DNA from: an uncultured cyanobacterium
GTDB lineage: Bacteria; Cyanobacteriota; Cyanobacteriia; CAKZMO01
NCBI GenBank assembly: GCA_963719515.1
Contig: CAVRCJ010000010.1
Coordinates: 704,001 to 768,000 of the forward strand
DNA length: 64,000 nucleotides
Reading direction: 5' to 3'
Part shown: positions 6,320 to 37,213 of the stretch, in pieces
Layout: every line of letters starts with the position of its first letter
How positions within the stretch are numbered: position 1 is the stretch's first letter
The notes under the pieces: model-generated
The model's database searches: none
What the model saw: the letters and a program-made list of their open reading frames with translations, nothing else
What the model was told of the DNA's origin: nothing
Translations under genes and position numbers: made by a program

Positions 6320-8005
6320 CTAATTCAGTGGACTACCCGCCAACCGCGCTGCCGCCGACTCTAGTTCCGGAGTCATAGCTTCGCTGACCAAGTGCAGCGA
6401 AGAGCCCTGATCTTGACTCAAAAAGTCGGAATAGGACGCCTGCAGGTAGCGGCGATAGCTCTCATCCTGCGCAGCATGCACGCCAAAGAACGCCAGGCTG
6501 AACCCCCAGGAATAGGTGGCTATAATTCTGGGGTCTGCTAGGGTGAGGCCATTGATTGAATTGATGGTGTCCGTGATGCCGACATCAAGTTCCGAAAAAT
6601 CAATGTGGGCCTGACCTTCAATCAAGCCCAGGTACCGCTCCTCGGAGGCCAGCCAAGGGAAGGTGCGAAACTGCTCAAACACAGCAGGCGTTGCCGGGTC
6701 GTGGCTTCCCGAAAGGATGAGGGCCGGAATTTGAACTTGGCGTAGCCCCTCAGGGCCGTAGATGCTGCTGTTCACCGGGTTCATTGCCACCACAGACTGC
6801 ACCCGCTCGTCGCGAAACTCGTAGTCCTGTCGAGGTAGCTCTAGCGCCTGACACTGCAGCAGCAGCGAGGTATTTAGGTAGCTGAAGCGATCGCCGCAGT
6901 CAGCCGAGAGGAAGTCGAAGTCGATGGTTGCCCCAGCTACGGCGAGGGCCGTGTAGCCCCCAAAAGAATGTCCTCCCACGCCGACGTGAGCAAGATCGAG
7001 CCGCCCTTCAAATTCTGATTCATTGCGGCGCTCTAGCTCATCAATGACGTCACTCACATCCAAGGGACGATCAACAAACTCTCCGACTTCGAACACAGCA
7101 TTGGTCAAGCCTTTGATTAGCTGATTGCGGTAGAGGGCATCGCTACCGGGATGCTGCGGCATCGCCACCACATAGCCGTGGGAGGCCATATGCGCGGCCA
7201 ACGTTGAAAAGTGCCGGGGGCTTGACGACAGGCCGTGGGAGAACACAATCACAGGCGTTTTTCCTGGTTGCCATCGGTCAGGGCGAACCACGTCGACGTA
7301 AAATTTACGCTGATAGAGTTGGCCAGATACGGGATCTTGCCGCTCAGAAACTAGCTCCCAGCGCTGCGATCGCGTCCCGTAGGGCCCCGGCTGATCCAGC
7401 TGCGGTAGGGCGGCGTAGTCCACGGCGACGTCCCCGCGCGCCTCTTCATCAGAGAGAACTTCTATCGTTTCAATTGAAAACAGCGTCGCGTTAACAACCG
7501 CTTCGACGTTTCGAGCCAAACTCAAGACCGACTGCAGGTTAACGCGCATATCGGTAGGCAGATACCGCAAGAAGTTGAGCGTTGAGAGACCCTCCTCGTC
7601 CTGCGCCGCAAGCACCAGCGCTGCCCTCAGAGAAAACTTCCCGTTAAGCCCGGCCTCGGTGCGCAGCAGATCGCCGAGAAACTTGGTCAAAATATCTTCG
7701 CCAATGGGGGTGTAGAGGATGCGGGAGAGCAAGGCGGGCTCGATGGGGGCGGGCCGCTGAAGCGCCGCTCGAAAGGCCGCTCGCTGTTCTTCATTAACTC
7801 CAGCAATGGCAAAGTAGCTGCCAAGCTGCCCGTTGACGGTGCCATCTTCGGCAAACGCCTCCAAGCTGCTGACGTCAAGAGAGCGCTCAATAATGCTGTA
7901 GTGAAACAGAATTCGCTCTGCAGCCCTTGCAGGCCAGGCCATAGCCAAAAGCGCCAGCAGCAGGGCGGTGCCGAGATAGCGCCGTCGCCAAATAGAGAGA
8001 ATCAT
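6320..8005 (-). CDS. secreted alpha/beta hydrolase with N-terminal DUF1400-like domain
   Basis: Signal peptide ending ARA-AERI, SHGLSS, nucleophile GHSFGG. Start placed at ATG 8005. Confidence 0.85.
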   Translation of the reverse strand: MILSIWRRRYLGTALLLALLAMAWPARAAERILFHYSIIERSLDVSSLEAFAEDGTVNGQLGSYFAIAGVNEEQRAAFRAALQRPAPIEPALLSRILYTPIGEDILTKFLGDLLRTEAGLNGKFSLRAALVLAAQDEEGLSTLNFLRYLPTDMRVNLQSVLSLARNVEAVVNATLFSIETIEVLSDEEARGDVAVDYAALPQLDQPGPYGTRSQRWELVSERQDPVSGQLYQRKFYVDVVRPDRWQPGKTPVIVFSHGLSSSPRHFSTLAAHMASHGYVVAMPQHPGSDALYRNQLIKGLTNAVFEVGEFVDRPLDVSDVIDELERRNESEFEGRLDLAHVGVGGHSFGGYTALAVAGATIDFDFLSADCGDRFSYLNTSLLLQCQALELPRQDYEFRDERVQSVVAMNPVNSSIYGPEGLRQVQIPALILSGSHDPATPAVFEQFRTFPWLASEERYLGLIEGQAHIDFSELDVGITDTINSINGLTLADPRIIATYSWGFSLAFFGVHAAQDESYRRYLQASYSDFLSQDQGSSLHLVSEAMTPELESAAARLAGSPLN

Positions 8006-8409
8006 GTTGATGGGGCTCTGAGAGGGCAGAAGAGGGACGTTAGGCTCAATCGAGCGCGTGACGGACGGCGGAGCTTCTAGGGGCACGGGCGATCGCCATC
8101 AGATGAGACAGTCAGCGTGCCGCGAAACGTCCATGATTAGCGGTACACCGACCTGCGACCTTAACTGTAATACAGAGCTTGCGGGGATTGACGCCACGGC
8201 CACGGTATTGGGGGCGAGCGCGGCTTTGAAGGGGTGCGATGTTGCTCAAGGGCCACTCGGCTCAGGGGAGCGAGTTTACAATTCAGCGTCCTCTCACCCG
8301 CTACCTATCCTGAGAACCCCAAAAAAGCTTGCAAGTATGAGGAGCGGCCCCCTAACCATAACTTTCCCAGCGCCCCTACTGTCCTGAAGCTCCCTACCTG
8401 CAGCCTCCC

Positions 8410-11400
8410 ATGCATACCATCACGATTAGCGATCGCCACCAGAGCGATCAGGGCTTTGAAGCCACAGTGAGCTTTGACTACGAAAGCGAATACCCTATCA
8501 CGGTCGCGAATCCGGTCAGTGAGGACGTAGAGAGCCTGGCAGAGCACGCTAAACAACAGACTGACCTATCTCAGGCAAAGAAAGGTGGCCTAGGCAGCCG
8601 CAAAGACTACGGCGAGCAGCTTTTTAACCAGATCTTTCACAGCAGCGAAGCCGCTTACGCTCAGTACCGTCAACTGCGCGATCGCTTCAGTCAGCTCGAA
8701 ATCAGCATCGAAAGCCAGTCCCTCGAATTTCAGGCCATACATTGGGAAGCGCTGCGAGACCCAGAGCTAGAGGAGCCGCTAGCGACACAATGTACTTTGG
8801 TCCGTAGACTGGGTTCCCCTGAGTCGCTCTACGACGGCATGGAGGCTTCGCCTTACCTAGACCTACTGTTGGTGACGGCGCGACCAGGAAACGACCCGAA
8901 TGCGGACCCCCGGACGATGGCCCGCCCCATTGTGGAAGCGATCGAGAGAGCCCAGCTGCCGGTGAGAGTGGAGCTGCTGCGGCCCGCCACCTACGAAGCG
9001 CTAGAGAACCACCTGCAGGGCAAAGAGGGCTATTATCACATCGTCCACTTCGATGCTCAGGGCACGCTGCTCACCTGTACGCAACTGCAGGCGATGAGCG
9101 GTGGGGGAGCGCCTGCGGCGGATCAAGATTCGGCGTCCGAAAGCAGCCCAATTCCCAAATATGAGGACCGAAAGGCCTTTTTGCTACTGGAGGGGGGCGG
9201 AAGGGGCACCGCTACCCTAGTGGATGTGGACCGCTTAGCGCTGCTGCTGCGGGAGAAATCAGTGCCGCTGTGTCTGCTCAACGACTGTCAACCGCTGACA
9301 AACTTTTCACAGGACAGCATCGCTAGCCACTTAATGGTCGCTGGGGTGCGTACGGTGGTAGCGATGGGCGACCTGGCGGAAGCGGGGACGACGTTTCTAG
9401 AGCATCTGTACGCCCAGCTGCTGGCGGGTCAGCTGCCGCACGATGCTGTATACAAAGCGAGGCGATCGCTTTACGAGCGTCAGCGGCATTCCCCAATTCA
9501 ACAGCTTGTCAATACAGAAGACTGGCTACTTCCCGCAGTCTACTGCAGCGAAGATGTAGACCTCAACCTGCGGGAGCTGACGCCCCAAGAGGCGGCTTTC
9601 TTCGAGGCGCAGAAGCAGCCGTCTTCCGAAGCGCCAGAGGCTGACGCGCCAGTTCCCGAAGCGCCAAGCCCTAGAGCGCTAAGCCCTAAAGCACTGGGCC
9701 AGAGCCTCCTGGGGCGCGACCTGGACATCCTCAAAGTAGAGCGCGCCTTGGACCGCCACAACATTCTGCTGCTGCTGGGCGAGGCAGGCGTGGGCAAAAC
9801 GGCGCTGCTCCACCATCTGCGGTGGTGGTGGCCAACCATCCGTTTCGCCGAAAAGCTATTCTACTTTGACTGTGACGAGCGGCCTCAGACAGTGGAGCAG
9901 ATTGTGTCTGACCTCAGTCAGGAGCTCTACAACCCGCTTGAGCTCAAAGAGTTTCAGGCCCTGCCGCTGCCGAAGCAAATCGATCGACTGGGTGAATTAC
10001 TGCGGGCAAATCGCTACCTGTTAATGCTTGACGGCCTAACGGCGTTGACGGCGCATTCCCCGGAGATATCGGCTGTCTTGGCCTCGCACCAGCGGCAGGC
10101 GCTGAAGTATTGCCTACAGGTGCTAGCGGGAGGGCTGACGAAAGTGCTGCTAACCTCCCGCAGCCCAGCGCCGTGGCTAGAGGCGGAGCTGAGCCCACCC
10201 GGCGATGGGGCTAGCGGTATCACTCGCCATGTCCTCAGAAGACTGGTACCAGATGCGCGGTTGCCTTTGGCCCGATCTATTTTAGGGGCGCAGAGAGACG
10301 AGAAGGCGATCGCGGCCCTCAGCCAAGATCCAGGCTTTGAGCCGCTGATCGCTCTGCTATCTGGAAGCCCGCTGGCGATGAAGGTGGTGCTGCCCCAGCT
10401 TCGGCAGCAGACGCCCAGGGAGGTGCTCGCGGAACTTCAGGCCCAACCAGAATCCCTCCCAGATCGAGCTGACGCTTCGCTGACGGAAAAGATTATCGAG
10501 TGCGCCGCGTATTTTCACGCTCACCCCTCTCCCAAAGCGCAGCTCCTGCTCCTGGGGCTGGCTCCCTTTAAAGGCGGCTTTAGGCAAGATTTCTTGCCGG
10601 AGTATTTCCAGCAGCTCAAGCAGCACAACTTGTTTCAAGACTATTCCTTCGAGCAATTTGAGGCGGCGATCGCGGAGGCAATCAGTAAAGGGCTGCTGTC
10701 GCGGCTAGCGGAAGATCAGCCGCAGATGCTGGCGATTCAGCCGGTGTTGTCCTACTTTCTAGGCGCAAAGCTAAGAACGCTAGGCCCGCAAACTCAGTGG
10801 GGACTGCGGCAGGCTTTTAAGACCCACTACCGGAAAACGAGCGGTCACTACCGGAGCTTGATTAACTCCACGGCGGGGCACGAGCGCCGAATTGGGCTGG
10901 CCTGCTGTCGTTTGGAATACGAGAATCTCTCTCAGGCCCTGAAAATTTGCCTGGAGGAGCAAGACTCAATTGATATCTTCTATGCTCTGAGGGATTTCTT
11001 GAGAATTAACCATGACCTCAAGGGCGGGGTTGCCCTATCGCAGTTTGTCTACGACAAGCTGACGCAGTATCCCGAAACGGTGAAGGTGGGGAAATTGGGG
11101 CTAGATACCGCCATGGTGGCTGGCGACTTGGCAACCTGCCACTTACTCTCTAAAAACTACCCATCGGCAGAAGAGCTGTATTGGGAGGCCATCACGCTCG
11201 CCGAAGCGCTGACGGGAATCGAGGAGAAATCGAGGCAGCTCAAGCTGCTGGCCGTGAGCTTCCATCAGCTGGGAATCGTTGAGCAAAAGCAAAAGCGATG
11301 GGAGCAGGCGAAAGGCCACTTTACCCAGTCGCTGACCATCAAGGCGAAGTATGAAGACACCTACGGCCAAGCCTGTACGTATCATCAGCTCGGCGTTGTC

Positions 11401-22902: not shown

Positions 22903-25728
22903 ATGAGGAGGCCACTTATGTCGATCAATCGCCGCGAGTTCTTCATGTTGGGAGCCGGACTGGGCATCGGCAGCTTCAGATTCGGCGCCGCGGCCCGCGC
23001 TGAGGCGATAGATGCAGGCCAGCTGCCGCGATCGCTTCAGCAATTCCCCGCGCTGATGGCACAGGTAAGCGGCTCGGTTGGGGGTGCGGTTGTTCCGGGG
23101 CGACACAGCGGCTTCATGGTGCAGAGCGACTATGGGGCGGCCAACAACTTCGAAGTGGTGTTTCACAGCGCCGCTGAGGGTTTGGCCCAGGTGTACCGCG
23201 ACAACGCCCAGCCCCAGTTTCCCTGGATTGGCCCTTTGCCCCCGGAGTATTTCTTTACCTGCGGGCCGTCTGGGCAGACGGGCAAGGCGCTGCACGGCAG
23301 CTTCTTTGGGGCAGGGGAGGCTTCCGACGTATCGCTGATCCAGAGCAACTTTAAGGACTTTGGCAGCAAGAACGGTCATCTAGAGCTGGTGGTGCGCCAT
23401 GGCGATAGGCTGGCCCTCTACTGGCGGGCGAGCGCCGCCCCACTGCTGTGGAATGGCCCCCTCTATCTGCCTGCAGCCACTCATACAGGTAACCCCGCCT
23501 TCATTCAGGGCGACTTCGGCACCCTCGGCAACTTTGAGCTAGTAGCCCCCCACGACGGCAGCGGGCTGCTGCACTACGTCCGCATCAACGACGATCCTGC
23601 CGTGCCTTGGGCGGGGCCGACGACCTTCGGCCAGCAGTTGGGCAAAGTGGATGCCGTAGCGCTCATTCAAAGCGACTACGTCGACGCTGGAGAAGGCAAC
23701 GGCCACATGGAGGCGATCGCCCGCGTCGGCAACAAGCTCTTTTCTCTGTGGCGCGAATCGAAAGAGCCCTACGGCTGGACGCTGCTGCCCCAGGCCATTA
23801 CTGACGAGGTAGGGGGCTTAGCGGTCACGGGGATTCCTGGCTTCGTTCAAACCCAGGACCGCGACTTTCATCTAGTCGTGCCGGTTGCCGAGGGCGGGTT
23901 GGCGCACCTGCGCCGTCAAAACAGCGTCGATACCGCCTGGGTTCTAGAAGACACCTTTGCGCCTGGCGTCGATGCTGCCGCCGCATCGCTGCTGCAAAAC
24001 CAGTTTGGCGGCGGGCTGGAGCTGCTGGTGCGGGTAAACGAGTCATCTCAGTTCCAGCACTTTTTCGCCAGCGTCGGAGAGAGCTGGAGCGCGGGCGGAG
24101 AGTTTGCCGAAGCGGCTGCGGATAGTCCCGCCAGCACAGGGGAATGGACCGTGCCCTACAGCCTCGACTTTGGCACCGTCGGCATCCACGCCGCTTTGCT
24201 CAACACCGGTAAGGTGCTGCTGGTGGGCTACGAAGATATTGTGGAAAACGAAAACAGCGCCGTCTCTATCTTGGACCCCAGAACCGGCCAGCAGACTAAC
24301 GCCCTGCCCAACCCCCAGCGCAATAAGTTTTGCTGCGGCCACGCCTTTTTGCCCGACGGGCGGCTGGTGCTGGCCTCCGGCAACGTGGGGGAAACCAGCG
24401 CCAAGTCCCTGCACACCTTCACCCCCAGCGGCGATGGGGGCACCTGGACCGACTTTGGCAGCATGAGCGGCGGCGTCCGCTGGTATCCCACCTGCACCAC
24501 GCTGCCGGACGGACGCGTGTTCATCCTGGCGGGGACGGCCCAGGTGTTCACCACCATCCAGCAGTCCACCTGCTCCCAAGACTTTATTGGCGGCACCGGC
24601 ACCCCCCGCACCATCAACAAGACCTACGAAATCTTTGACGGCAGCAGCAAGGGCAATTCGATCGCGGTGCCGGAGCTGTTTGAGGACTGCGAGGACAGCC
24701 TCGGGCTATACGGGCTGTATCCCTTTGTGTTCGTCATGCCCGACGGGCGGCTGATGATCCACGGCAACACCCGCACCTACTTCCTAGACGTGAACACCAA
24801 CGCCGTTGAACCCCTGCCCAGCCGGACCCAAATCAAGACCTCCCGCACCTATCCATCAGAAGGCTCCGCTGTGATGCTGCCGCTGCTGCCGGAGAAGGGC
24901 TATCAGGCCCGGGTGATGCTGATTGGCGGTGGGGTGTCCTGCTCCTTTGTGCCCTCCAGCAACCCCAACTGCGGCCAGGGCCAGCCCATCACCCCCGACG
25001 GCAACCCCATCCAAACCGCCTGCCTCGACAAGCGGGACGACTGGCCCACCACCAATACCTGTGAGGTGCTGGACCTCAACGCTCCCGAGCAGGGCTGGAG
25101 CTTCACCGCCGCCATGAAGAGCGGTCGGGTGATGCCCGACGCGGTGCTGCTGCCCGACGGCACGGTGTTTGTCTGCAGCGGCAGCAGCACCGGAACAGCG
25201 GACGTGGCCCGCACGCCGGTTTTAGAAGCCGAGATCTACGACCCCGAGCAAAACAAGTGGACCAGCGTCGCCGCCATGCATGTCCCCCGGCTCTACCACG
25301 CCGCCGCCATCCTGCTGCCCAGCGGCGAGGTGCTGACCTCGGGCACCGACAAGTTCTACAACATCGAGCCCTTTGACCATGCGGAGAACCGGGTGGAGGT
25401 GTTTAAGCCGCCCTATCTATTTAAGGGAGAGCGGCCCGCGATCGCTGCCGTCACGGGGCAGGTGGGCTACGGCGACCTGTTTAGCGTCAACACGCCCGAT
25501 GCGGGCGCTGTAAAGTCGGCCTGCTTTATTGCGTTGGGGGCGAGCACCCACTCGTTTAATATGCAGCAGCGGTTTGTGGGGCTGGAGATTAGCAATCAGG
25601 GCGGCGGTGAGCTGCTGCTGAAGGCTCCGCCCAACGCCAACATTGCCCCTCCGGGGTTCTACATGCTGTTTTTGGTGAATCAGCAGGGGGTACCGTCAGA
25701 GGCGAAGTTTGTGAAGCTGCAGGCTTAG
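22903..25728 (+). CDS. Tat-exported copper radical oxidase (galactose/glyoxal oxidase, AA5-like) with N-terminal repeat domain and DUF1929
   Basis: SINRREFF Tat motif; NKFCCGH, RWYPT, RLYHA and STHS catalytic motifs; PPGFYMLF C-terminus. Confidence 0.88.
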   Translation: MRRPLMSINRREFFMLGAGLGIGSFRFGAAARAEAIDAGQLPRSLQQFPALMAQVSGSVGGAVVPGRHSGFMVQSDYGAANNFEVVFHSAAEGLAQVYRDNAQPQFPWIGPLPPEYFFTCGPSGQTGKALHGSFFGAGEASDVSLIQSNFKDFGSKNGHLELVVRHGDRLALYWRASAAPLLWNGPLYLPAATHTGNPAFIQGDFGTLGNFELVAPHDGSGLLHYVRINDDPAVPWAGPTTFGQQLGKVDAVALIQSDYVDAGEGNGHMEAIARVGNKLFSLWRESKEPYGWTLLPQAITDEVGGLAVTGIPGFVQTQDRDFHLVVPVAEGGLAHLRRQNSVDTAWVLEDTFAPGVDAAAASLLQNQFGGGLELLVRVNESSQFQHFFASVGESWSAGGEFAEAAADSPASTGEWTVPYSLDFGTVGIHAALLNTGKVLLVGYEDIVENENSAVSILDPRTGQQTNALPNPQRNKFCCGHAFLPDGRLVLASGNVGETSAKSLHTFTPSGDGGTWTDFGSMSGGVRWYPTCTTLPDGRVFILAGTAQVFTTIQQSTCSQDFIGGTGTPRTINKTYEIFDGSSKGNSIAVPELFEDCEDSLGLYGLYPFVFVMPDGRLMIHGNTRTYFLDVNTNAVEPLPSRTQIKTSRTYPSEGSAVMLPLLPEKGYQARVMLIGGGVSCSFVPSSNPNCGQGQPITPDGNPIQTACLDKRDDWPTTNTCEVLDLNAPEQGWSFTAAMKSGRVMPDAVLLPDGTVFVCSGSSTGTADVARTPVLEAEIYDPEQNKWTSVAAMHVPRLYHAAAILLPSGEVLTSGTDKFYNIEPFDHAENRVEVFKPPYLFKGERPAIAAVTGQVGYGDLFSVNTPDAGAVKSACFIALGASTHSFNMQQRFVGLEISNQGGGELLLKAPPNANIAPPGFYMLFLVNQQGVPSEAKFVKLQA

Positions 25729-27449: not shown

Positions 27450-27450
27450 T

Positions 27451-27873
27451 TTAGACTGCCCTTTGCTCAATGAGGTAGCTGATCACCTGGCCTTGGGCGG
27501 GGGTGATGTGGATACCGGTTTCCCGGACGGGCATGAGCGGGGTCCAGCGGTGGCGCTCGATGCGGCGACCGAGGTGGAGCCGGTTGATGGCGTCGATGAC
27601 GCCTTGGGGGGAGCCGATGAGGATGTGGTGGACGTAGTCGTAGTTGGCGTCTGGGCTGGGGTTGGGGAGGGCGATCGCTGGGGCGGTTTCAGGGCTGGAG
27701 GCCCTCTCCCCCAACCCCTCTCCCAAACATGGGAGAGGGGAGTTCGGTTCCCTTCCCTCGGAGTCGGGGGAAGGGCTAGGGATGGGGGCCATTTCGGGGG
27801 CTTTACTCTCGGGCATTGGGGACTGTGCCGCCTCATCGGTGGGATGGGACGACGAGCGATATTGGTTTGTCAT
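27451..27873 (-). CDS. small cyanobacterial hypothetical protein with in-frame repeat insertion; paralog of 48159-48452
   Basis: HILIGSPQGVIDAINRLH...WTPLMP...GQVISYL aligns with IIATGVPQAVQSHVNAMY...WTDPVP...GEVMRVL; AAGGAA RBS. Confidence 0.7.
   Translation of the reverse strand: MTNQYRSSSHPTDEAAQSPMPESKAPEMAPIPSPSPDSEGREPNSPLPCLGEGLGERASSPETAPAIALPNPSPDANYDYVHHILIGSPQGVIDAINRLHLGRRIERHRWTPLMPVRETGIHITPAQGQVISYLIEQRAV
27697..27789 (-). repeat. 93-bp palindromic dispersed repeat, family A, copy 1 (inside a CDS)
   Basis: Reverse complement closely matches 32076-32168. Confidence 0.9.
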
Positions 27874-28336
27874 TCTTGGGGTTCCTTTTTTGTTGTGGTA
27901 GGAAACCCAGGAATTCAGCCATCCCTTGAGCGGTACTTGTTTCGGGATGGCTGTCGGAATCGCTTATGCTACCGATAGCCGCCGAAGCAGGTCTGTTCTG
28001 CTGAGGGGGTCAGGGGGCAATCGTCGGGGTCAACGGCGATCGCCTCCGTTTCAGGCTAAATTCTTGGGAGCCAAGCTGCGGAGGGCAGCTCTCAAGACAA
28101 GACAATAGCGTATTGGTGAGCGGGCCGCAAGAGTAGTACAAGCTTTTTTGAAATGCGAGGCTTAGCCATGTACCGGGGCTTCAATTCCCAGGTTCGCCAT
28201 CGTGAGTTCAGGGCTTGTTCGTAGAAACATGGAGCGGATGAGGACAGGTGGCGAGGAAGGCAAGATGGGTATCATCTGTGGATAGCGGTTAGATTTAAAG
28301 CAAGGCTAACGCTACATCAGCGATGGGGAAAGGCCA

Positions 28337-28549
28337 ATGACTCAATTAACTATCGAGCTACCTGAGCAGATCGCAAAAGATTTGGAGGCCTATCTACGGG
28401 CAAATCCACAGGAAACTCTAGTGGGGCTGATTTACGAGGCGCTACAAATTAGGTTGACTCCAAAAGATCCTTCTCAGCTCCTAGCGTTGGCAGGCATCGT
28501 CACTGATGCCCCTCGCGGAGCGGCAGAGCATGCGGAGGACTTAGCCTAG
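28337..28549 (+). CDS. small hypothetical, antitoxin/RHH-like protein
   Basis: QLTIELPEQIAKDLEAY N-terminus. Confidence 0.55.
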   Translation: MTQLTIELPEQIAKDLEAYLRANPQETLVGLIYEALQIRLTPKDPSQLLALAGIVTDAPRGAAEHAEDLA

Positions 28550-28689
28550 CTTTGACAAGCTGCAAAGCGCGGTGACTGAATTGCCCCAGTGGCGCGGCTC
28601 CTTGGAAGATGGAACGGTGATGCTGACGGCACTGAAATATCGCTGCCCTATCTGGACTTACAATTTTCGAGACTTCAGCGTATTCCAGA

Positions 28690-28814
28690 CTTTGGAATTT
28701 TGGAATCCAAGTATGGGAAACTAGTGGTGCGTTGTGGCCGTTACAGCTCTGGTAGGCTAGCGCCAGATTATCCTCATAGCTTTGCTGAGCGGCTGAGATG
28801 CGGGGCTTAGCCAT
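28690..28814 (-). pseudogene. internally deleted HNH endonuclease remnant
   Basis: MAKPRISAAQQ joined directly to DNLALAYQSCNGH (a degenerate NLALAC..CN motif). Confidence 0.55.
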
Positions 28815-29199
28815 AGACTGGGGTTTCAATTCTCAGGTGGGCCATCGCAACTTAAAGACTGGTTCCCTGCCGCTCTGAGAGGGCAATTAGGACTTGAATG
28901 CGGTGAACGTTGGCTTGCTCAATCCGCTCAGAGATTTCAATTAGCTCGGTCTGTTCGGCAGGCGTTAGGGTTTCGGCTTGGCGCTTGGCAATCAGCGTGT
29001 GGTAGCGCTTCCAGGTATCCTGCGAAAGTCCAATGCTGACTTGCTCTAGGAGTTCGGCTTCTATTATGGCAGGGGGTGGACTAAGCCGCTGCTGCAGTAG
29101 ATTGAGGATGTAGCTGGTGGGGTTGAGGCCTTGCTGGGTCGCAACTTCGTGCAGGCGCTGCTCTAATTCTGGAGTGAGGGTGAGGGTGAGCGTCGCCAT
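28808..29199 (-). pseudogene. HNH-associated antitoxin-like gene with premature stop
   Basis: TAA at 28852-28854; the same frame continues VAMAHLRIETPVYG to a stop overlapping the HNH start. Confidence 0.6.
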
Positions 29200-29320
29200 G
29201 ACATCGATGAGATGAATTTCCTCTATTGTAGCTGTGTCTATTGATATCTCTTATTCACGCTATGTGGCCGATAGCCCAGAGAATGAGGCAAAATTAACGT
29301 TAGGTAGCAGAAAAGCTGAG

Positions 29321-30706
29321 ATGAGTGACGAGAAGATCGATGGCCAAAAGTCACAGGGCCTGATCAGTGACGCTAAGGGGTCGATCGAGCAGCAGTATGG
29401 CGATCGCCCAACGACGAATACAGGTGGTGGCGATTCTGCTGGACGCGATGTTAATAAGCGCCAGAATACCTTCATTATCAACTTGCTCGGCTCTGACCCT
29501 GCTAGTTCCATCTCACAGCAATCGATACAAGAATTAGTCGCAGTGCTGGCGCAAGTGACTGATGGGCAAAGCGTGAGCCGGGCTTATCAAGAGGCGCTAC
29601 CGCCGGATGCGGATGTGTCGCGGGCCAAAGCAACCACCTTGGAAGGTATGGTGGCGCAGCTTGAGGAGTTTCGGAAGCTGCAAGCGTTTCTACAACAAAT
29701 TGCGGCAGACCCTAATCTTCCAGAAGCTGTGCGCAGACAGCTCGACGAACTCCAGCAGCAGGAGGGGAATGTTGCTCAGAAAGAATCAGAGGACACCATC
29801 AGTACTAGTCCCTCTGTTCTTCAGGCGTATCTTCAGATTGTGGTTCGTCAAGAGCGAGGCTCAGACAAACTTGTCGTTAACGCCTGGCTGATTCCCGATA
29901 TCAGTGTTACTGACCCCAGTCAGCGCTACCAGTCTCTAGATTTAGACGAGTCTCGAAAAGGCGTTTCCTGTCAGATCGAAGGCGTCCAGGCGATTCTAAA
30001 TCAGTTTCTAGATGCAGCACTGGAAACGCTAGATGGTCAATATTATGACCAGCACTATGAGCTGACAATTGAGATGTTTCTGCCGTGGGAGTACCTTTGC
30101 AGAGACGTTGATGCCTGGAAGATGACGGTCGATCTGGACTATGAGCAAGAGATATTTCCAGTGGGCACCAGATATCACGTGCTTGTTAGGTCTCAAGAAC
30201 GGCTCAGTCCGAAGTATCTACGCAATAAGCGAAATCAGTGGCTGGCAAGTTGGGAGCGCGTTGAGGCGCGCCTATCGTCCTCGGTGGCGCTTAAAGATGA
30301 CGACTTTGAGCACATAAATCAGATGCAGACCTGCGACTGGGCTAGGCTCGGTAATCGACTGGAGCAGAAGCTAGGCCTCAAGGTCACTTGTGGCCTGCTC
30401 GAAGATCGCAAGAAGGAGCTATTTACCTGTATCCTCCGCGCCGCTGCCCCCGTTGCTGTTTGGCCGAGGGTTGACTTCTGCGAGGAGGATAACCTTGAGG
30501 GGCAGGAACGCGAGATTAACGGTCTGCTTGTTTCTAGGCCGCTGCGATCGCTAATGAACCGTATCCGGCAGAAACGCAAGGACGCCCACTGCGCGAGCTG
30601 TTCAGACGCCCATATCGGTTCGCATTTAGCAATTCTATGGGAAGATCCAAATCGACTGACGCCGGATGTGCAGCCCCAGGCTCAGCTTAAATCGCCAGGA
30701 ACATGA
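29321..30706 (+). CDS. VMAP (vWA-MoxR-associated protein) with VMAP-C domain and N-terminal low-complexity motif
   Basis: TIEMFLP...DVDAW, VLVRSQERL, PVAVWPR and HLAILWEDPNRLTP; directly upstream of MoxR and vWA genes. Start placed at ATG 29321. Confidence 0.82.
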   Translation: MSDEKIDGQKSQGLISDAKGSIEQQYGDRPTTNTGGGDSAGRDVNKRQNTFIINLLGSDPASSISQQSIQELVAVLAQVTDGQSVSRAYQEALPPDADVSRAKATTLEGMVAQLEEFRKLQAFLQQIAADPNLPEAVRRQLDELQQQEGNVAQKESEDTISTSPSVLQAYLQIVVRQERGSDKLVVNAWLIPDISVTDPSQRYQSLDLDESRKGVSCQIEGVQAILNQFLDAALETLDGQYYDQHYELTIEMFLPWEYLCRDVDAWKMTVDLDYEQEIFPVGTRYHVLVRSQERLSPKYLRNKRNQWLASWERVEARLSSSVALKDDDFEHINQMQTCDWARLGNRLEQKLGLKVTCGLLEDRKKELFTCILRAAAPVAVWPRVDFCEEDNLEGQEREINGLLVSRPLRSLMNRIRQKRKDAHCASCSDAHIGSHLAILWEDPNRLTPDVQPQAQLKSPGT

Positions 30707-30909: not shown

Positions 30910-31015
30910 TCTTCGAGTAATGAGACGTCGAAGATACTTCAGGACGTAAATTTTGCTTGCGGTACTTGTCTGAACTCGGGAAATTTGAATGTCCTCAGCA
31001 GTATGTGGAGTTGAC

Positions 31016-32035
31016 ATGAGCGACTGGCGTATTTTTACTGGCACTGGAGAGCCCCACAACAGAATCGCTGACCTACCAAAACCGCCAAGCTGGCGAGACT
31101 TTGAACGGGACTTTGACGCGGAAGAACTAGTCGGTGCGCCGCGCCCGCTGAGCGATCGCGATAGAACCCGTGGCGAGAGCTTTCGCGTGTCATCTACCGA
31201 CGAGGACTTGATAAACGTAGTGAACGCGGCGCTGTATCTGCGGCGACCGCTGCTGGTGACGGGGAAGCCGGGGACGGGGAAGACGTCGCTGGCTTATCGG
31301 ATTGCCTATGAGCTGGGGCTGGGGGCGGTGCTATCTTGGTCGATTACGGCGCGGTCTACCCTGCAGGATGGGCTGTATCGCTATGATGCGATTTCGCGGC
31401 TGCAGGATGTGCAGCTGAAGCCGAAGGAGAACGGGGCGGTTGGTGAGGCGAGCGCTGATATTGGCCGCTATATTCAGCTCGGACCGCTGGGGACGGCGAT
31501 GCTGCCGGCGAAGACACCCCGCGTGCTGCTGATTGATGAGTTTGATAAGAGCGACATCAACTTACCCAATGATTTGCTGAACCTGTTCGAAGAAGGAGAG
31601 TTTGAGGTGCCGGAGCTGGCGCGGATCGCGAAAGATACAGAACGGGTGCAGGTGCGCACCTATGATGAGCGAGACGCGACTATCAAGCGGGGGAAGGTGC
31701 AGTGCGCGAGTTTTCCGTTTGTGGTGTTGACGAGCAACGGGGAACGGGACTTTCCGCCTGCGTTTTTGCGGCGCTGCCTGCGGCTGACGATGCCCGACCC
31801 GACCCAGGAGGCGCTGGCGGATATTGTGAAGGCGCATTTGGGGGCTGAGGCGGTGAATGAGGCGGAGCCGCTGATTGAGCAGTTTGTGGAGAAGCGGACA
31901 AAGGGGGACCTGTCGCCGGACCAGCTTTTGAATGCGGTGTATTTGGTGACGAATCAGTTTAGCCCGGAAAAGGGCGATCGCAAGAAGCTGATGGATGTGC
32001 TGATGAAGTATCTCTCTAGCACTGAGGATGGATGA
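31016..32035 (+). CDS. MoxR-family AAA+ ATPase
   Basis: GKPGTGKT, LLIDEFDK, TSNGERDFPPAFLRRC; GGAG RBS before ATG 31016. Confidence 0.93.
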   Translation: MSDWRIFTGTGEPHNRIADLPKPPSWRDFERDFDAEELVGAPRPLSDRDRTRGESFRVSSTDEDLINVVNAALYLRRPLLVTGKPGTGKTSLAYRIAYELGLGAVLSWSITARSTLQDGLYRYDAISRLQDVQLKPKENGAVGEASADIGRYIQLGPLGTAMLPAKTPRVLLIDEFDKSDINLPNDLLNLFEEGEFEVPELARIAKDTERVQVRTYDERDATIKRGKVQCASFPFVVLTSNGERDFPPAFLRRCLRLTMPDPTQEALADIVKAHLGAEAVNEAEPLIEQFVEKRTKGDLSPDQLLNAVYLVTNQFSPEKGDRKKLMDVLMKYLSSTEDG

Positions 32036-32075
32036 GCCGAACGGTAGGACATGATTTGTGTTGAGCGTCCTGGAA

Positions 32076-32168
32076 GCCCCCATCCCTAGCCCTTCCCCCA
32101 ATTCTGAGGGAAGGGAACCAGACTCCCCTCTCCCAAGGTTGGGAGAGGGGCCGGGGGTGAGGGCCTCC
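32076..32168 (+). repeat. 93-bp palindromic dispersed repeat, family A, copy 2
   Basis: Matches the reverse complement of 27697-27789. Confidence 0.9.
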
Positions 32169-32230
32169 GATATGCTAAACATGCACCTGCCATGTCCTTC
32201 CAAAATGCACACCCCAAACCAGCAAGGCCG

Positions 32231-35071
32231 ATGATTGATCAGCTAGTCGCAGCGCTAGGTCAAGATCTGGGTCTGACGAGTAAGGAAATCGCAGACGCGG
32301 TTTGGCTTGCGCTGCAGATTGACTCGGCTGGCCTTCCGACCCGTGCTGATGATGGCGGGGCTGCCGAGGTTAAGCCGGAGGGCGATCGCAATCGAGCCGC
32401 TGACAGAGATTTCTCGGATTCGGCTTTGGACTCTCGCAGAGACGAGGGACCGAAGGAGCCTAAACCGCCTGAGGCGGAGCTGAGGACGCCTAACCCTGAT
32501 GCTGAGGGGCAAGGCGGATTCGGCTCCGACCTGATGATTAAAGTGCCGGATGCGCGATCGCTGCGGGAGCCGCTGGAGCTGGCAAAGTCCTTGAAGCCGC
32601 TGCTGCAGAAGGTGACGGCGGGGCTGAGCACAGTGCTGGATGAAGCGGCGACAGTGGAGCGCATTGCTGGGGAAGGCATTTGGATGCCGGTGCTGGAGCC
32701 GAATTTGGAGCCTTGGCTGGACTTGGCGCTGGTGGTGGATGACAGTCTTTCGATGCATTTATGGCAGCGGACGATTGCGGAGTTGCAGCGCCTGCTGGGG
32801 AACTACGGCGTGTTTCGGGATGTGCGAGTTTGGAGTTTGGCGACGGATGAATTGGGGCAAATTCGGCTGAGGCCGCGATCGGGGGCGAAGGCTGCTCAAA
32901 AGAAAACGCTGCATCGACCCAGTGAGCTAGTGGACCCTGGCGGGCGACGGTTGATTTTGATTGCGACGGACTGTGTGTCTGAGATTTGGCATGACGGGAC
33001 GATGCTGCCCGTTTTGAAGCTGTGGGCGGCGAGTGGGCCGATGGCGATTGTGCAAATGCTGCCGGAGTGGCTGTGGGCGCGGACGGCGTTGGGGTTTGCG
33101 TCGGCGGTGAGGCTACATTCGCTGATGCCGGGGGTGCCGAACCAACGTCTAGATTTGCGGGGGCTGTCGCCTTGGGATGAGGTGGATTTGGGGGCGGGGA
33201 TTCGGGTGCCGGTGGTGACGCTGGAGCCGGAGGCATTTTTGGCTTGGGCGAAGGTAGTGAGTTCTAAGCAGGGGGCTTGGTGTCCTGGGTTTATTTTTGA
33301 GCCGGATGTGACGGCGGGTGCTTCGCAGTTTGAGGGGTTGGATTCGGGAGAGTCGGCGGAGCAGCGGGTGCAGCGATTTCGGGCGACGGCGTCGCCGATG
33401 GCGCGGCGGTTAGCGGGGTTGCTGGCGGCGGCTCCGGTGATTAGTTTGCCGATTGTGAGGATTATTCGCGATCGATTGTTGCCGGAGTCGAGGCAGGTGC
33501 ATGTGGCTGAGTTTTTTGGAAGCCAGTTATTAGAACCATTACTCAGAGGTCAATCATCAATAAATCCTGATCTGATAAAGTACAATTTTATTAGTGGTGT
33601 TCGGGAATTTTTAATTGAATCGGTTTCAACTGAAGACGCGCTTGATGTTTTAGAGGAAGTATCTAAATTTGTTTCAGGAAAATTTGGAATTTCGATGAAA
33701 ACATTTACAGCAATCTTAAAGGATCCTTCTCAGGCAGCGAAGCCAGATTTTCTGGAGCAATCATATTCCTTTGCTTATTTGACCACTAAAATTCTTAAGC
33801 AGCTGGGCGGAAAGTACAAAAAATTTGCAAATAAATTAGAGAATGACCATATTATTTTTAACTCTAGATCGCTAGATATTAGTACTAGACCTATTAACAA
33901 CTTACCTCAAGAAAGAGAAAGTAGTGACACTAGTAACACTATAAAGGATTTGCTTTATGAGAAAAACCGACTAGGCTCTTTGATCAGAATGGATTCAGAA
34001 AATATTGGTTTCAAGCTCGAGCGGATTGAAGTCTTTACTTGGCTAGCTGATATTAAGAAATATCAGCTAGCCAAACCGAAGACAGCAGAAAGGTATTTCA
34101 AAGCAGCACTGAAAGATTGGTCTGAAATCATTACTGATGAAAACTTACTTCTAGCTTCACCTCAAAAAATAGTAATGATTTACGTGCGATTGAGAGACTA
34201 TTTATATAAATATACCAACTCTAGGGACAAAGAATATAGGTTCAGAGAAATCTTACATTCCATTGAGCGTATCAACAGTAATTCTAATAAATCGCCCGAG
34301 ATACACCTTATTTTTGCCGATACTTTGCTAAGGCTAGGAGTATTAGAATTAGAGTTAGATCCTTTAGAAAGCTTTATTAAAGTCAGCAAGGCAATTGATG
34401 TATTTGCACAGACATCTATGATTGAAGATACTTCAAATTATAGGGAAAGTTATACTTGGATGTGCGAAGCATATAATGCAAGGCTGAGTTTAAATATTAG
34501 ACGCGAAAACATCAAAGATGCTATGAGGGATTTCGAAACGATTAGAAATGTTTTTCTCCCGATATTTGAACAATATTCGTTTGATTTTTACTTGCTTAGT
34601 AAGATTCAGTCTGCCCACTTCAAAGCCGGTAAACTTCTATTTGACAAGGGTCAACACAATGATGCTAAGCCGATGCTTGAATATGCTTCTTGCTGGGGAA
34701 ATAAAGAAAGCTCTAAGCTTTTAGCAGAAATGCATCGGAAAGGCTTACAGATACAGGAAAATCTTTCACGGGCTCAAGAACTAGAAGCTAAAGCTTCTAG
34801 ACAGGCTATGAAAAAATTTACTGTTCCTGCTCAGTTTGGAATTGTTAAGAGCCAGTTCTATGTATACATTTACGATAGACCAACCGATTACCCTTATAAG
34901 GGCGTTGATGATCAAGCTGAATGGTTAAAACGAAATCGGGGAGGAATAATACAGGATGATGTTCTCGAAGCTTTTAGGAAGCTTCATCAGATAGCTATTG
35001 AAAATAGCGTATCTTTTCCTGATCTAGCTGTGTATGCTTTAGGCAAAGCTTCAAACAAGAAGCAAACTTAA
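32231..35071 (+). CDS. vWA protein (SAV_2336-like N-terminus) fused to helical/SEL1-like repeats and a DUF2610-like C-terminal domain
   Basis: EIADAVWLA, MIDAS VVDDSLSM, TDCVS and QMLPEWLW. C-terminus KKFTVPAQFG...RGGII...ENSVSFPDLAVYAL. Confidence 0.85.
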   Translation: MIDQLVAALGQDLGLTSKEIADAVWLALQIDSAGLPTRADDGGAAEVKPEGDRNRAADRDFSDSALDSRRDEGPKEPKPPEAELRTPNPDAEGQGGFGSDLMIKVPDARSLREPLELAKSLKPLLQKVTAGLSTVLDEAATVERIAGEGIWMPVLEPNLEPWLDLALVVDDSLSMHLWQRTIAELQRLLGNYGVFRDVRVWSLATDELGQIRLRPRSGAKAAQKKTLHRPSELVDPGGRRLILIATDCVSEIWHDGTMLPVLKLWAASGPMAIVQMLPEWLWARTALGFASAVRLHSLMPGVPNQRLDLRGLSPWDEVDLGAGIRVPVVTLEPEAFLAWAKVVSSKQGAWCPGFIFEPDVTAGASQFEGLDSGESAEQRVQRFRATASPMARRLAGLLAAAPVISLPIVRIIRDRLLPESRQVHVAEFFGSQLLEPLLRGQSSINPDLIKYNFISGVREFLIESVSTEDALDVLEEVSKFVSGKFGISMKTFTAILKDPSQAAKPDFLEQSYSFAYLTTKILKQLGGKYKKFANKLENDHIIFNSRSLDISTRPINNLPQERESSDTSNTIKDLLYEKNRLGSLIRMDSENIGFKLERIEVFTWLADIKKYQLAKPKTAERYFKAALKDWSEIITDENLLLASPQKIVMIYVRLRDYLYKYTNSRDKEYRFREILHSIERINSNSNKSPEIHLIFADTLLRLGVLELELDPLESFIKVSKAIDVFAQTSMIEDTSNYRESYTWMCEAYNARLSLNIRRENIKDAMRDFETIRNVFLPIFEQYSFDFYLLSKIQSAHFKAGKLLFDKGQHNDAKPMLEYASCWGNKESSKLLAEMHRKGLQIQENLSRAQELEAKASRQAMKKFTVPAQFGIVKSQFYVYIYDRPTDYPYKGVDDQAEWLKRNRGGIIQDDVLEAFRKLHQIAIENSVSFPDLAVYALGKASNKKQT

Positions 35072-35283
35072 AGAGCACAACGGTTTTTGGAGAAATTTTA
35101 AATAATATGGCTGCTCCGTCAAAGTTACAAATTTTTCTCAAAGACCACAATTTTCACCATTGTCGGAACTAATATAGCCTCAATAAAAGCACAGCCCGCC
35201 TAATTAAAGATACTCCATTAAAAACCTCACTCAGCGTCTACCTAAGTTAAGTTCCTCAGCCACTGCTTCACGCACGGCTATAC

Positions 35284-36534
35284 TCAAAGCTGGTGATCTG
35301 CTCCCATACCCGGCTCCGCCTTAGCTTCTTCGCTTAGTACAGCGCGATCGCCCTCCTCCTCCTCCTCACCAATCCTCAAATCCTGAGCACTCCCCACATT
35401 AACGTTATACTTCCCCCGCTGCGTCACATTCTGAACCGTATCCCCCTTCACCAAATCCCGCCCAGCATAATCCCCACCCCCCGTATCAATAGTCGTCACA
35501 TTCCCAAACTGCTGACTAATCACTGCCCCTTCCCCAGCATTCACGATCGCCCCCTGCGCCCCTCTCAAATCAACCTGGTCCCGCCCCACCACAGCCATAT
35601 CCGCGCCTACCGTAAACTCCCCCCTCAAAATCTGCCCCATCACCCGCGCGCTATCCTCAGCCGCCACCTCCCGCACCGCTCCGCTTAAAACCGAAGGCCC
35701 ATCCCCCACATCTAGCTCCCCCTCAACCGGTTTCCTCCGGTGCAGCGCCACAGCCATCGCCCCAACCCCTTTCTGAATCGTCAACTCCGGCTCCTGCAGC
35801 AACCCCAGCGCCTCAAATCGCTGCTTCACCACCCCGCTCACCGCCGCAAACACAGCCTCATACAAATCAAAAATACTGATATACCCCTTGCGGCTCTCAA
35901 TCCCCTTGCCTCGCAACCCGTCCGCCAGCGCCGCCGCAAAATAAGTCAAATCCCCTTTTGGCTCAAAATACGATAGCTGAGTCTCCCGACAGGCCGTAAT
36001 AATCACCCGCCCCTCCCCAGTCCCCAACAGCGCCGACGCCGTCCGCCCCGGCAGGCTCCGCCCCATCGCCTCTGGCTCACTCCCCAACGCCTGCGGTGAA
36101 ATCTCCCCCGAATGGCAAGCATTAAACAGCAAAAACACCCGCTTCGCCTTAATCGCCTGCAGCTTCTCCAGCAGCGATCGCTCCTGCACCCCAGACCCCG
36201 CCACCACTTTCCCCTCACTCATCCGGGTATCGTGGGTCGTCAGATAATACCCATCCTCCCCGTACTCCCCATGCCCGCTGTAAAACAGCAAAAATGTATC
36301 CTCTTCCGTCAGCGCCCCCGCCAGCTCATCCAGCGCCGCCTCAATTGTCTCCCGCGTCGCCTCCCCTTCAGTGAGCAGCCTCACCTGCCCCTTCGGGTAG
36401 CCACAATAGCGAGGATTCCGCAGCACGTCCGCCACCTCCATGGCGTCCTCCACGGTGATGGGCACGTTCATCTCGGGCTGGTGATTGTAGGAGCCGACAC
36501 CAATAACTAGGGCGTGAGCTGTTTCAAAGGGCAT
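35284..36534 (-). CDS. caspase-family (peptidase C14) protease with G/Q/N-rich C-terminal tail
   Basis: HALVIGV, catalytic YSGHG and FNACHSG. Start placed at ATG 36534. Confidence 0.92.
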   Translation of the reverse strand: MPFETAHALVIGVGSYNHQPEMNVPITVEDAMEVADVLRNPRYCGYPKGQVRLLTEGEATRETIEAALDELAGALTEEDTFLLFYSGHGEYGEDGYYLTTHDTRMSEGKVVAGSGVQERSLLEKLQAIKAKRVFLLFNACHSGEISPQALGSEPEAMGRSLPGRTASALLGTGEGRVIITACRETQLSYFEPKGDLTYFAAALADGLRGKGIESRKGYISIFDLYEAVFAAVSGVVKQRFEALGLLQEPELTIQKGVGAMAVALHRRKPVEGELDVGDGPSVLSGAVREVAAEDSARVMGQILRGEFTVGADMAVVGRDQVDLRGAQGAIVNAGEGAVISQQFGNVTTIDTGGGDYAGRDLVKGDTVQNVTQRGKYNVNVGSAQDLRIGEEEEEGDRAVLSEEAKAEPGMGADHQL

Positions 36535-36769: not shown

Positions 36770-37213
36770 CTACTCCGCCTCCACCGGTTCCGTATACTCA
36801 CAAAAAATATTCAGCCCCACCTTCAGGACATAAAGCACCACCACCGTCGCAATCCCCGAACCAATCGGCAGCGTCGTCAGCTCCACCAAGGTCACGATCG
36901 CCCCCGTCAAAATCGAAGCGCTCCCCGGATTTTTGTTGTAGTCCAAAATCTTCGAGCGAAAGCCCTCATCTCCGCACACCTCCTGCCGCAGCACCTTCAG
37001 CGTCACCTCCCACAGCGACTTATCGCCGGGGCCAAAGATGCCCAAGCTGCCCACCTCCTCTCGCCACAGCTCCTGAAAGCTACTCTCTAAATCGCCATCG
37101 TACTTTTGTAAGGAAGCAATCGCCTCCTGCATACTCGCGGCCTCTGCCACGTCGGAAGTACTGATCAGCTGCTGTGCCCTTTGAATCTCTATTAGAGAGA
37201 GCTGTTTATCCAT
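36770..37213 (-). CDS. hypothetical protein with C-terminal hydrophobic helical hairpin
   Basis: ATG 37213; ILTGAIVTLV and IATVVVLYVLKVGL segments. Confidence 0.75.
   Translation of the reverse strand: MDKQLSLIEIQRAQQLISTSDVAEAASMQEAIASLQKYDGDLESSFQELWREEVGSLGIFGPGDKSLWEVTLKVLRQEVCGDEGFRSKILDYNKNPGSASILTGAIVTLVELTTLPIGSGIATVVVLYVLKVGLNIFCEYTEPVEAE

Follow-up and report, generated by a model that had tools for sequence, protein, structure and literature searches.

How does a single open reading frame (ORF) come to change its base composition abruptly in the middle of a conserved domain, and what does the encoded protein gain from the part that follows? The question is raised by a gene for a vWA-domain protein within a 64,000-nucleotide stretch from an uncultured cyanobacterium (assembly GCA_963719515.1, contig CAVRCJ010000010.1, positions 704,001 to 768,000 of the forward strand; hereafter the window), where genes for a VMAP protein, a MoxR-type ATPase and the vWA protein follow one another on the + strand (29234-30706, 30989-32035 and 32192-35071) and meet a convergent caspase gene. 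A first-pass annotation of this DNA had proposed that a recent recombinational exchange at a conserved junction gave the vWA protein a new C-terminal tip, making its DUF2610-like domain a candidate conflict effector or sensor. The explanation that we find best, at a probability of about 0.55, is that the AT-rich 3' part of the gene is a swapped-in cassette, and that its tip is a truncated TPR-SEL1-DUF2610 module serving as a cytoplasmic sensor that signals via MoxR and VMAP to the caspase. That the AT-rich 3' part was exchanged into the gene is in itself highly probable, and the sensor role of the tip, once the exchange is granted, is moderately favoured. The elements concerned are as follows, with residues numbered throughout in the 959-residue frame 32192-35071.

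32192-35071, + strand: vWA component (SAV_2336 N-terminal family); NF041121 at E 4.2e-138 over residues 30-499, 461 bits against a cut-off of 200.
32231-33511, + strand: resident GC-rich core, comprising the vWA domain and the first half of the helical extension; set apart by third-position composition and identity to the relative P0156.
33512-35253, no strand: AT-rich cassette, comprising the 3' 519 codons of the vWA gene and most of the spacer; from change points and the joint of a relative's contig (33511 to 35343).
33512-33526, + strand: junction scar, where AEFFGSQLL replaces AEVFLGGLL.
33512-33847, + strand: putatively foreign version of residues 441-552, which make up the latter half of the conserved helical extension; none of the 49 relatives in the tree set exceeds 48% identity to it.
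33941-34801, + strand: TPR-like solenoid with a SEL1-like repeat at its end, spanning about residues 584-870 and probably the last part of a longer ectodomain; from predicted fold and profile matches to TPR and SEL1 chains.
34808-35053, + strand: DUF2610, residues 873-954, predicted to cap the solenoid with one beta-hairpin and three helices; PF11020 at E 1.8e-20.

The compositional change is sharp and falls within a single open frame. For all bases and for third codon positions alike, the maximum-likelihood change point is base 33512 (2-log-likelihood interval 33495-33528), the first base of codon 441, across which the G+C fraction (GC) falls from 0.61 to 0.36 and that of third codon positions (GC3) from 0.68 to 0.31. 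This agrees with the first-pass annotation, whose counts (44 of 60 G+C at 33361-33420 and 19 of 60 at 33541-33600) are exact, and which saw the in-frame drop at QVHVAEFF, a motif starting at 33494. GC3 is 0.72 in the core (32231-33511) and 0.68 on average in the host genome, which has a GC of 57% and is as AT-rich as the block in only 3 of 3509 segments of 1.5 kb; the in-frame step ranks third among 1765 long ORFs of the genome. The AT-rich block runs on beyond the vWA stop to about 35253 (interval 35222-35270), ahead of the 3' end of the convergent caspase gene. GC3 change points in 44 related genes with DNA are scattered, several at the equivalents of residues 356-612, the window's being the strongest. 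The absence of HIP1 sites from the AT-rich part, likewise noted at first pass, is real; as a sign of foreign origin it is not significant and was discarded (2.55 sites expected, P about 0.08, with 238 of 3021 genome segments of the same size also free of HIP1). No repeats were found at the cassette ends as a signal of site-specific recombination. As a separate observation, in-frame GC3 steps stronger than this one occur in two other long ORFs elsewhere in the genome (G000), one of 848 codons (0.76 to 0.29) and one of 1385 codons (0.76 to 0.42), and two further steps lie at NPPF/NPPY motifs. Such motifs are typical of DNA methyltransferases, in which they stand next to swappable recognition domains.

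The compositional edge coincides with an edge in homology. We compared the window protein with the best 120 of 467 core matches, its nearest vWA relatives. The nearest, P0156, is 94% identical over residues 110-370 (63 of 66, 62 of 65 and 64 of 65 residues in three core blocks), falls to 42 of 53 over 388-440 and to 48 of 112 (43%) over 441-552, and is unrelated beyond, where it carries other tip domains; among 76 nearest-neighbour pairs drawn from these proteins, it forms with the window protein the pair with the lowest extension identity and the most upstream break. In trees built from 50 chosen rows (the window and 49 relatives), the window's end branch measures 0.045 for the core and 0.87 for the extension 441-552, and at the DNA level similarity to the loci L060, L061 and L062 stops at 33517. 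In four metagenome runs, each containing 5-7% of the stretch's words and aligned at 80% likeness, relatives' contigs cover VMAP, MoxR, core, caspase and a 147-residue gene beyond it, and none of the four has any depth over 33528-35063 apart from 0.63 in one bin of run X1. One contig of run X4 departs from the window at 33511, in coincidence with the compositional change point, and rejoins it at 35343; a HIP1 site at 35344 adjoins this joint and may merely mark the restart of the alignment. Together, the 94%/43% mosaic with another tip in P0156 and the X4 contig joint support a swapped cassette well. They bear out the recombinational exchange proposed at first pass; its being recent is bounded rather than dated, the exchange apparently postdating the divergence from relatives that are roughly 85-95% identical. 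A search of the 120 nearest vWA proteins for a close relative of identical full-length make-up found none, a near-identical copy (P0006) excepted.

Tip exchange as such is ordinary in this family, since Kaur et al. (2020, PMC7159879) report mutual displacement of vWA tips among close relatives, and since of the 74 pairs of 76 in which tips could be tested, 51 have unrelated tips, 10 partially and 13 mostly similar ones. The position of the join is less usual. As the family model NF041121 spans residues 30-499 and alignments stay conserved to about residue 552, codon 441, where the step occurs, is internal to the conserved helical extension and about 110 residues short of the family's usual break: the break falls at or beyond residue 540 in 61 of the 76 pairs, within 461-539 in 13 and within 430-460 in just 2, in an analysis allowing one change point per pair, which is biased to the end of homology and under-counts inner crossovers. 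The junction is thus not the conserved one that had been supposed, and QVHVAE as a fixed junction of the family was rejected; the join moreover damages a conserved motif. AEVFLGGLL is exact in 111 of the 120 relatives and off by one residue in the other 9. The window keeps all 28 conserved extension columns at 388-440, and 27 of 33 highly conserved ones at 441-552, and R471 is retained; of the six departures, four fall within the five scar codons that alter the motif after E440 (post hoc P 0.002). These codons resemble a short compensated frameshift; the join looks imprecise rather than programmed. The second join, at residues 553-585, shows no GC step (0.34 against 0.36). In the AT-rich vWA genes L068-L080, GC3 rises at the tip from about 0.33 to 0.52 at the equivalent of residues 561-587, and tips are therefore not always the AT-richer part.

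Beyond the extension, a polar linker precedes the point (residues 568-587) at which similarity of 42-46% to the non-vWA proteins P0001, P0002, P0007, P0008 and P0009 begins. The DUF2610-like domain recognized at first pass is confirmed by PF11020 (73 bits against a cut-off of 21, model positions 1-80 of 81), whereas the helical SEL1-like repeats are upheld by the predicted fold and not by Pfam: an AlphaFold2 model of residues 602-959 reaches a predicted local distance difference test score (pLDDT) of 95 and matches TPR and SEL1 solenoids best, among them the kinesin light chain TPR, BtubC (Z 16.1, root-mean-square deviation 4.3 over 230 residues) and SEL1 proteins. A profile search of solved structures matched solely the TPR/SEL1 part. 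A structure search with the poor single-sequence model of DUF2610 (pLDDT 54) had no match beyond Z 2.8, a result that is not to be read as a sign of a new fold; two Atlas searches yielded no usable match. Conservation in DUF2610 falls on T, Y, G, D, Q, W, R, S and hydrophobic residues; a His/Cys/Glu set is lacking, and no catalytic, nuclease- or toxin-like motif was seen among the conserved residues. The domain search found no lectin domain in the tip, the hydropathy rule no membrane helix, and PHROGs (one match at E 0.021), GenBank phages and IMG/VR gave no match that would indicate a phage origin. By sequence, the tip is a truncated, unanchored copy of the last ~375 residues of a longer module. 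A perfect 16-base-pair hairpin with a 4-base loop, of which there are about 20 so long in the genome, lies in the coding tip at 34039-34074, where the protein departs from its relatives, and is possibly a template-switch mutation.

To what does this longer module belong? A profile search returned 479 relatives, of which we examined the best 150 plus two. Among these, only P0006 carries a vWA core and 151 do not, and none of the 120 nearest vWA proteins carries DUF2610, the window's tip being unrelated to the tips of all 120; the vWA-DUF2610 fusion thus appears not to recur in these searches, the P0006 copy apart. DUF2610 is also rare in the phylum (2 of 401 genomes), and in the literature we found it only as an accessory domain in lists of cyanobacterial caspase domains (PMC8283722, PMC7475262). 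A scan of 42 chosen module proteins assigned 16 to nSTAND1, 2 to AAA_35, 3 to TIR alone, 3 to kinases and 4 to caspases, 14 having repeats only. A hydrophobic 19-mer lies ahead of the module in 22 of 24 STAND, AAA_35, TIR and kinase proteins (caspases excluded) and in 8 of 101 control tips. Of the 151 module proteins, 30 are too short to judge; the other 121 comprise 51 with a predicted signal peptide, 28 with an inner helix and 42 with neither, and signal-peptide calls in controls number 0 of 120. On these predictions the module is an exported, receptor-like domain. In many relatives DUF2610 lies inside the solenoid and is followed by a further 140-700 residues. The STAND form occurs on a Nostoc plasmid (e.g. 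WP_179076911.1), and the TIR form as an AT-richer insert in another cyanobacterium (L058). The window's own tip would be cytoplasmic, a location taken from the tips of its vWA relatives (AAA_35, TIR, FHA, kinase) because the hydropathy rule flags the vWA extension itself.

Of the two roles first considered for DUF2610, conflict effector or sensor, this evidence speaks more for binding without enzymatic activity, as sensor or decoy, by a module from an exported, receptor-like family than for a toxin. In the order of events that we infer, the last ~375 residues of a receptor-like ectodomain, without the membrane helix, would first have been fused behind a vWA helical extension in an AT-rich background, with the join at residues 553-585. 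The tip, together with its own half of the extension, would then have been brought into the GC-rich locus by two crossovers, one at the conserved QVHVAE motif and the other close to the 3' end of the caspase gene, leaving the five-codon scar. In the resulting circuit a ligand would bind the tip, inducing MoxR remodelling, then VMAP and presumably activation of the caspase, with a putative anti-phage role. This direction is that of the model in bioRxiv 10.1101/2023.09.22.558884, in which the vWA tip senses and signals through MoxR to a VMAP-side peptidase, and no killer-type enzyme other than the caspase, which a common motif links to VMAP, was found in the locus. A broader and more tentative idea, which we hold to be possible though doubtful, is that TPR-SEL1-DUF2610 proteins form an undescribed family of surface receptors with transmembrane signalling to STAND, TIR and kinase domains, and that the vWA gene took their binding end, stripped of its anchor, and rewired it to a cytoplasmic caspase pathway. 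If so, the same ligand would now be watched from inside the cell.

Several points weigh against the sensor cassette. The approximately unbiased (AU) test does not reject window and P0156 as sisters in the extension tree (p 0.226), so that congruent phylogenies of the two halves are not rejected, formal tree incongruence is dropped as evidence, and the incongruence rests on distance, not on topology. A donor of residues 441-600 was not found among 324 candidates, none matching at E 1e-12; P0158, paired with the window's extension at support 99/81, was not trusted as donor, the pairing joining two longer branches. The X4 joint is a single contig at 80% likeness with a shorter side of 45 letters and a middle that is not known, and its right end (35343) lies 90 bases past the compositional end. 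The membrane and signal-peptide calls come from crude hydropathy rules, which flag the vWA extension helix (residue 407) in 109 of the 120 controls. The scar may have damaged the protein, and PMC7159879 proposes the reverse direction, in which VMAP senses and vWA tips are effectors or decoys.

Among the alternatives, a strong rival in view of the truncation and the scar, though unlikely as we judge it, retains the swapped cassette but makes the tip a decoy that would absorb a protein directed at the usual exported or standalone form of the module, or else a spent capture with little function. The tip is indeed truncated and unanchored, the capture of inactive modules as decoys is described in PMC7159879, and in favour there are also the four substitutions in an almost invariant motif, the absence of a second DUF2610 gene from the host genome, and the retention of one cysteine of a pair kept in the five closest module relatives. 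The frame is nevertheless intact, 43 of 52 conserved SEL1-DUF2610 positions are kept, including all those conserved at 80% or more, and so are the 27 extension columns counted above; a decoy would find no resident copy to protect, and the second cysteine is also lost in 20 of 79 relatives; as a sign of relocation the loss is weak and was discarded.

More improbable still is a toxic effector, DUF2610 being silenced by the solenoid and freed by MoxR remodelling or caspase cleavage. Here the terminal position of the domain, which holds effectors in the vWA family (PMC7159879), the conserved D907, Q908, W911 and R916, which could form an unrecognised active site, and a fold without clear match (from a poor model) have to be set against its place in most relatives, within solenoids and on what is predicted to be the external face of the membrane, with the TIR, kinase or STAND domains on the cytoplasmic side, which makes a toxic DUF2610 less likely. 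The tip has no nuclease- or toxin-like motif and the vWA protein no PADLOC match, and the cassette contains no candidate immunity gene, there being no ORF of 80 residues or more between tip and caspase.

We give very little credence to a history without transfer, in which the 3' part drifted in place towards AT without a partner for homologous repair and the step is the edge of a gene conversion. The non-significant AU test and the missing donor are compatible with it, as are the related vWA genes L028, L030, L059, L060 and L064, whose extension and tip are likewise lower in GC3 (0.24-0.35), but it would require about 20-fold faster change in a segment conserved in other pairs, and it leaves a tip unrelated to those of all 120 nearest cores, an edge sharp to about 30 bases and a relative's contig that skips the block; drift may explain the AT-rich donor pool, and not the fusion. 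Least credible of all is an assembly chimera joining two organisms' DNA in frame, suggested by relatives without the block in four runs, which do not include the assembly's source reads, and countered by a frame open across the join within one homologous domain, by P0006 on a separate, possibly independent contig of 7916 bases, 99.65% identical across the join, and by a contig of 905 kb in a genome with 1.4% contamination.

The neighbourhood in which the circuit would operate comprises the following further elements.

29234-30706, + strand: VMAP gene; VMAP-C (PF20028) at E 1.6e-32, 113.7 bits against a cut-off of 27.
30989-32035, + strand: MoxR-type AAA+ ATPase; AAA_5 and AAA matches, motifs WRIFTG and PSWRDF.
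32031-32229, no strand: dispersed-repeat insertion of 199 bases between the MoxR and vWA genes; many genome copies.
35284-36534, - strand: convergent caspase-family peptidase; Peptidase_C14 at E 6.6e-13, His-Cys dyad motifs SGHG and ACHSG, EAD10-like C-terminal motif just under the cut-off.
36770-37213, - strand: 147-residue protein, encoded upstream of the caspase and belonging to no known family; a partner 68-71% identical lies in the same place in L029 and L030.

By sequence this is a VMAP-MoxR-vWA ternary system with a linked caspase, a known cyanobacterial conflict system with a probable anti-virus role; action against invaders via a MoxR-driven complex is a prediction of PMC7159879 and bioRxiv 10.1101/2023.09.22.558884. 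The MoxR motifs fit the patterns WxhapG and PsWRxa of PMC7159879, the VMAP-M1 match stays below the Pfam cut-off, and domain searches of the locus found no enzyme domain on VMAP or on the vWA tip. VMAP residues 19-75, within an N-terminal motif of ~45-60 residues, match caspase residues 305-363 (39%, E 2e-08); the common glycine/polar motif, of 59 residues (29288-29458 in VMAP, 35446-35622 in the caspase), is kept in related loci. The vWA domain has DxSxS at residue 183, and the N-terminal extension EIADAVW, of which the printed pattern [D/E]xxx[D/E]xxxa has the same residue types at longer spacing. The start of the protein is likely the ATG at 32231, giving 946 residues, in agreement with relatives that start at the matching Met and with one 946-residue cluster member. 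In related loci MoxR directly abuts the vWA start; here the dispersed repeat separates the two genes, and their translational coupling may be lost. The repeat has a 5-base GATGA at both ends, and 32031-32229 is missing from a relative's contig, whose joint has 5 letters in common.

A matching caspase adjoins the vWA genes in L029, L030 and L059, where it has a further helical tail that is absent from the window's, and the 147-residue gene travels with the caspase. The core query matched one of four same-genus genomes, at 46% and of a distant type; in G003 the caspase sits at a contig end, from which no inference was drawn. L028 and L029 are two VMAP-MoxR-vWA systems about 13 kb apart on one contig, with unlike tips, and L059, at 6990-8390 and 9534-10940, has the caspase in two frames and, further downstream on the opposite strand, the broken tail of a second vWA protein, which carries an ATPase tip. 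Elsewhere in the window, 22903-25728 encodes a 941-residue protein whose N-terminal half looks repeat-like and which has a galactose/glyoxal oxidase domain and possibly a twin-arginine leader, and 27450-29200 holds repeated small genes and repeats, including an antitoxin-like ORF of 115 residues (28852-29199, - strand), with a similar array on contig C6.

Exchange is expected for the vWA family, and the surprise is limited accordingly. Tip exchange had been deduced from domain lists; here one exchange is resolved to the base, including its two ends, the scar and a proposed two-step history. Cores 94-99% identical with unrelated tips would allow tip swaps to separate the published models, in which the tip is a sensor or an effector. 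DUF2610, hitherto a name in caspase domain tables, is placed at the end of a predicted ectodomain common to STAND, TIR, kinase and caspase proteins.

Among known systems, the C-terminal tip displacement of Rhs proteins (Jackson et al. 2009, PMC2935791) is similar in its GC-rich core, AT-rich tip and low-GC trough past the gene, and in recombinational exchange within the core with core fragments of variable length. Unlike Rhs, the window has no Rhs core, no displaced tips downstream and no immunity gene, the old tip having been replaced rather than pushed along, and the core matches only once in the genome (tblastn), without an array of displaced tips and core fragments; lacking orphan tips and an immunity gene, the locus is not assigned to that kind. 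The vWA-CLec sensors diversified by diversity-generating retroelements (Dore et al., bioRxiv 10.1101/2023.09.22.558884 / PMC10907252) share with our preferred reading a vWA tip that senses, and differ in their lectin domain, which has no match in the window's tip, and in that variation arises here by whole-tip exchange; no second copy of the tip DNA is among the genome matches listed, and a reverse transcriptase was not searched for. Single-pass nSTAND1, AAA_35, TIR and kinase proteins and secreted solenoids (e.g. WP_179076911.1) resemble the tip at 42-49% over the last ~370 residues, and differ in a longer solenoid, a predicted membrane helix or signal peptide, and the lack of a vWA core. The main text and two supplements of Kaur et al. 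(PMC7159879) do not name DUF2610, although the source data of its Figure 1 may list the architecture, and describe no base-level junction or GC step; about 70% of the vWA tips reported there hold repeats or scaffolds. With those systems the window shares the gene order, VMAP-C, the MoxR motifs, a vWA protein with helical extension and variable tip, and an EAD-linked caspase. By its sequence, the locus is thus a member of the VMAP systems in which an already published and common process, tip exchange, has produced a tip not seen before in these searches.

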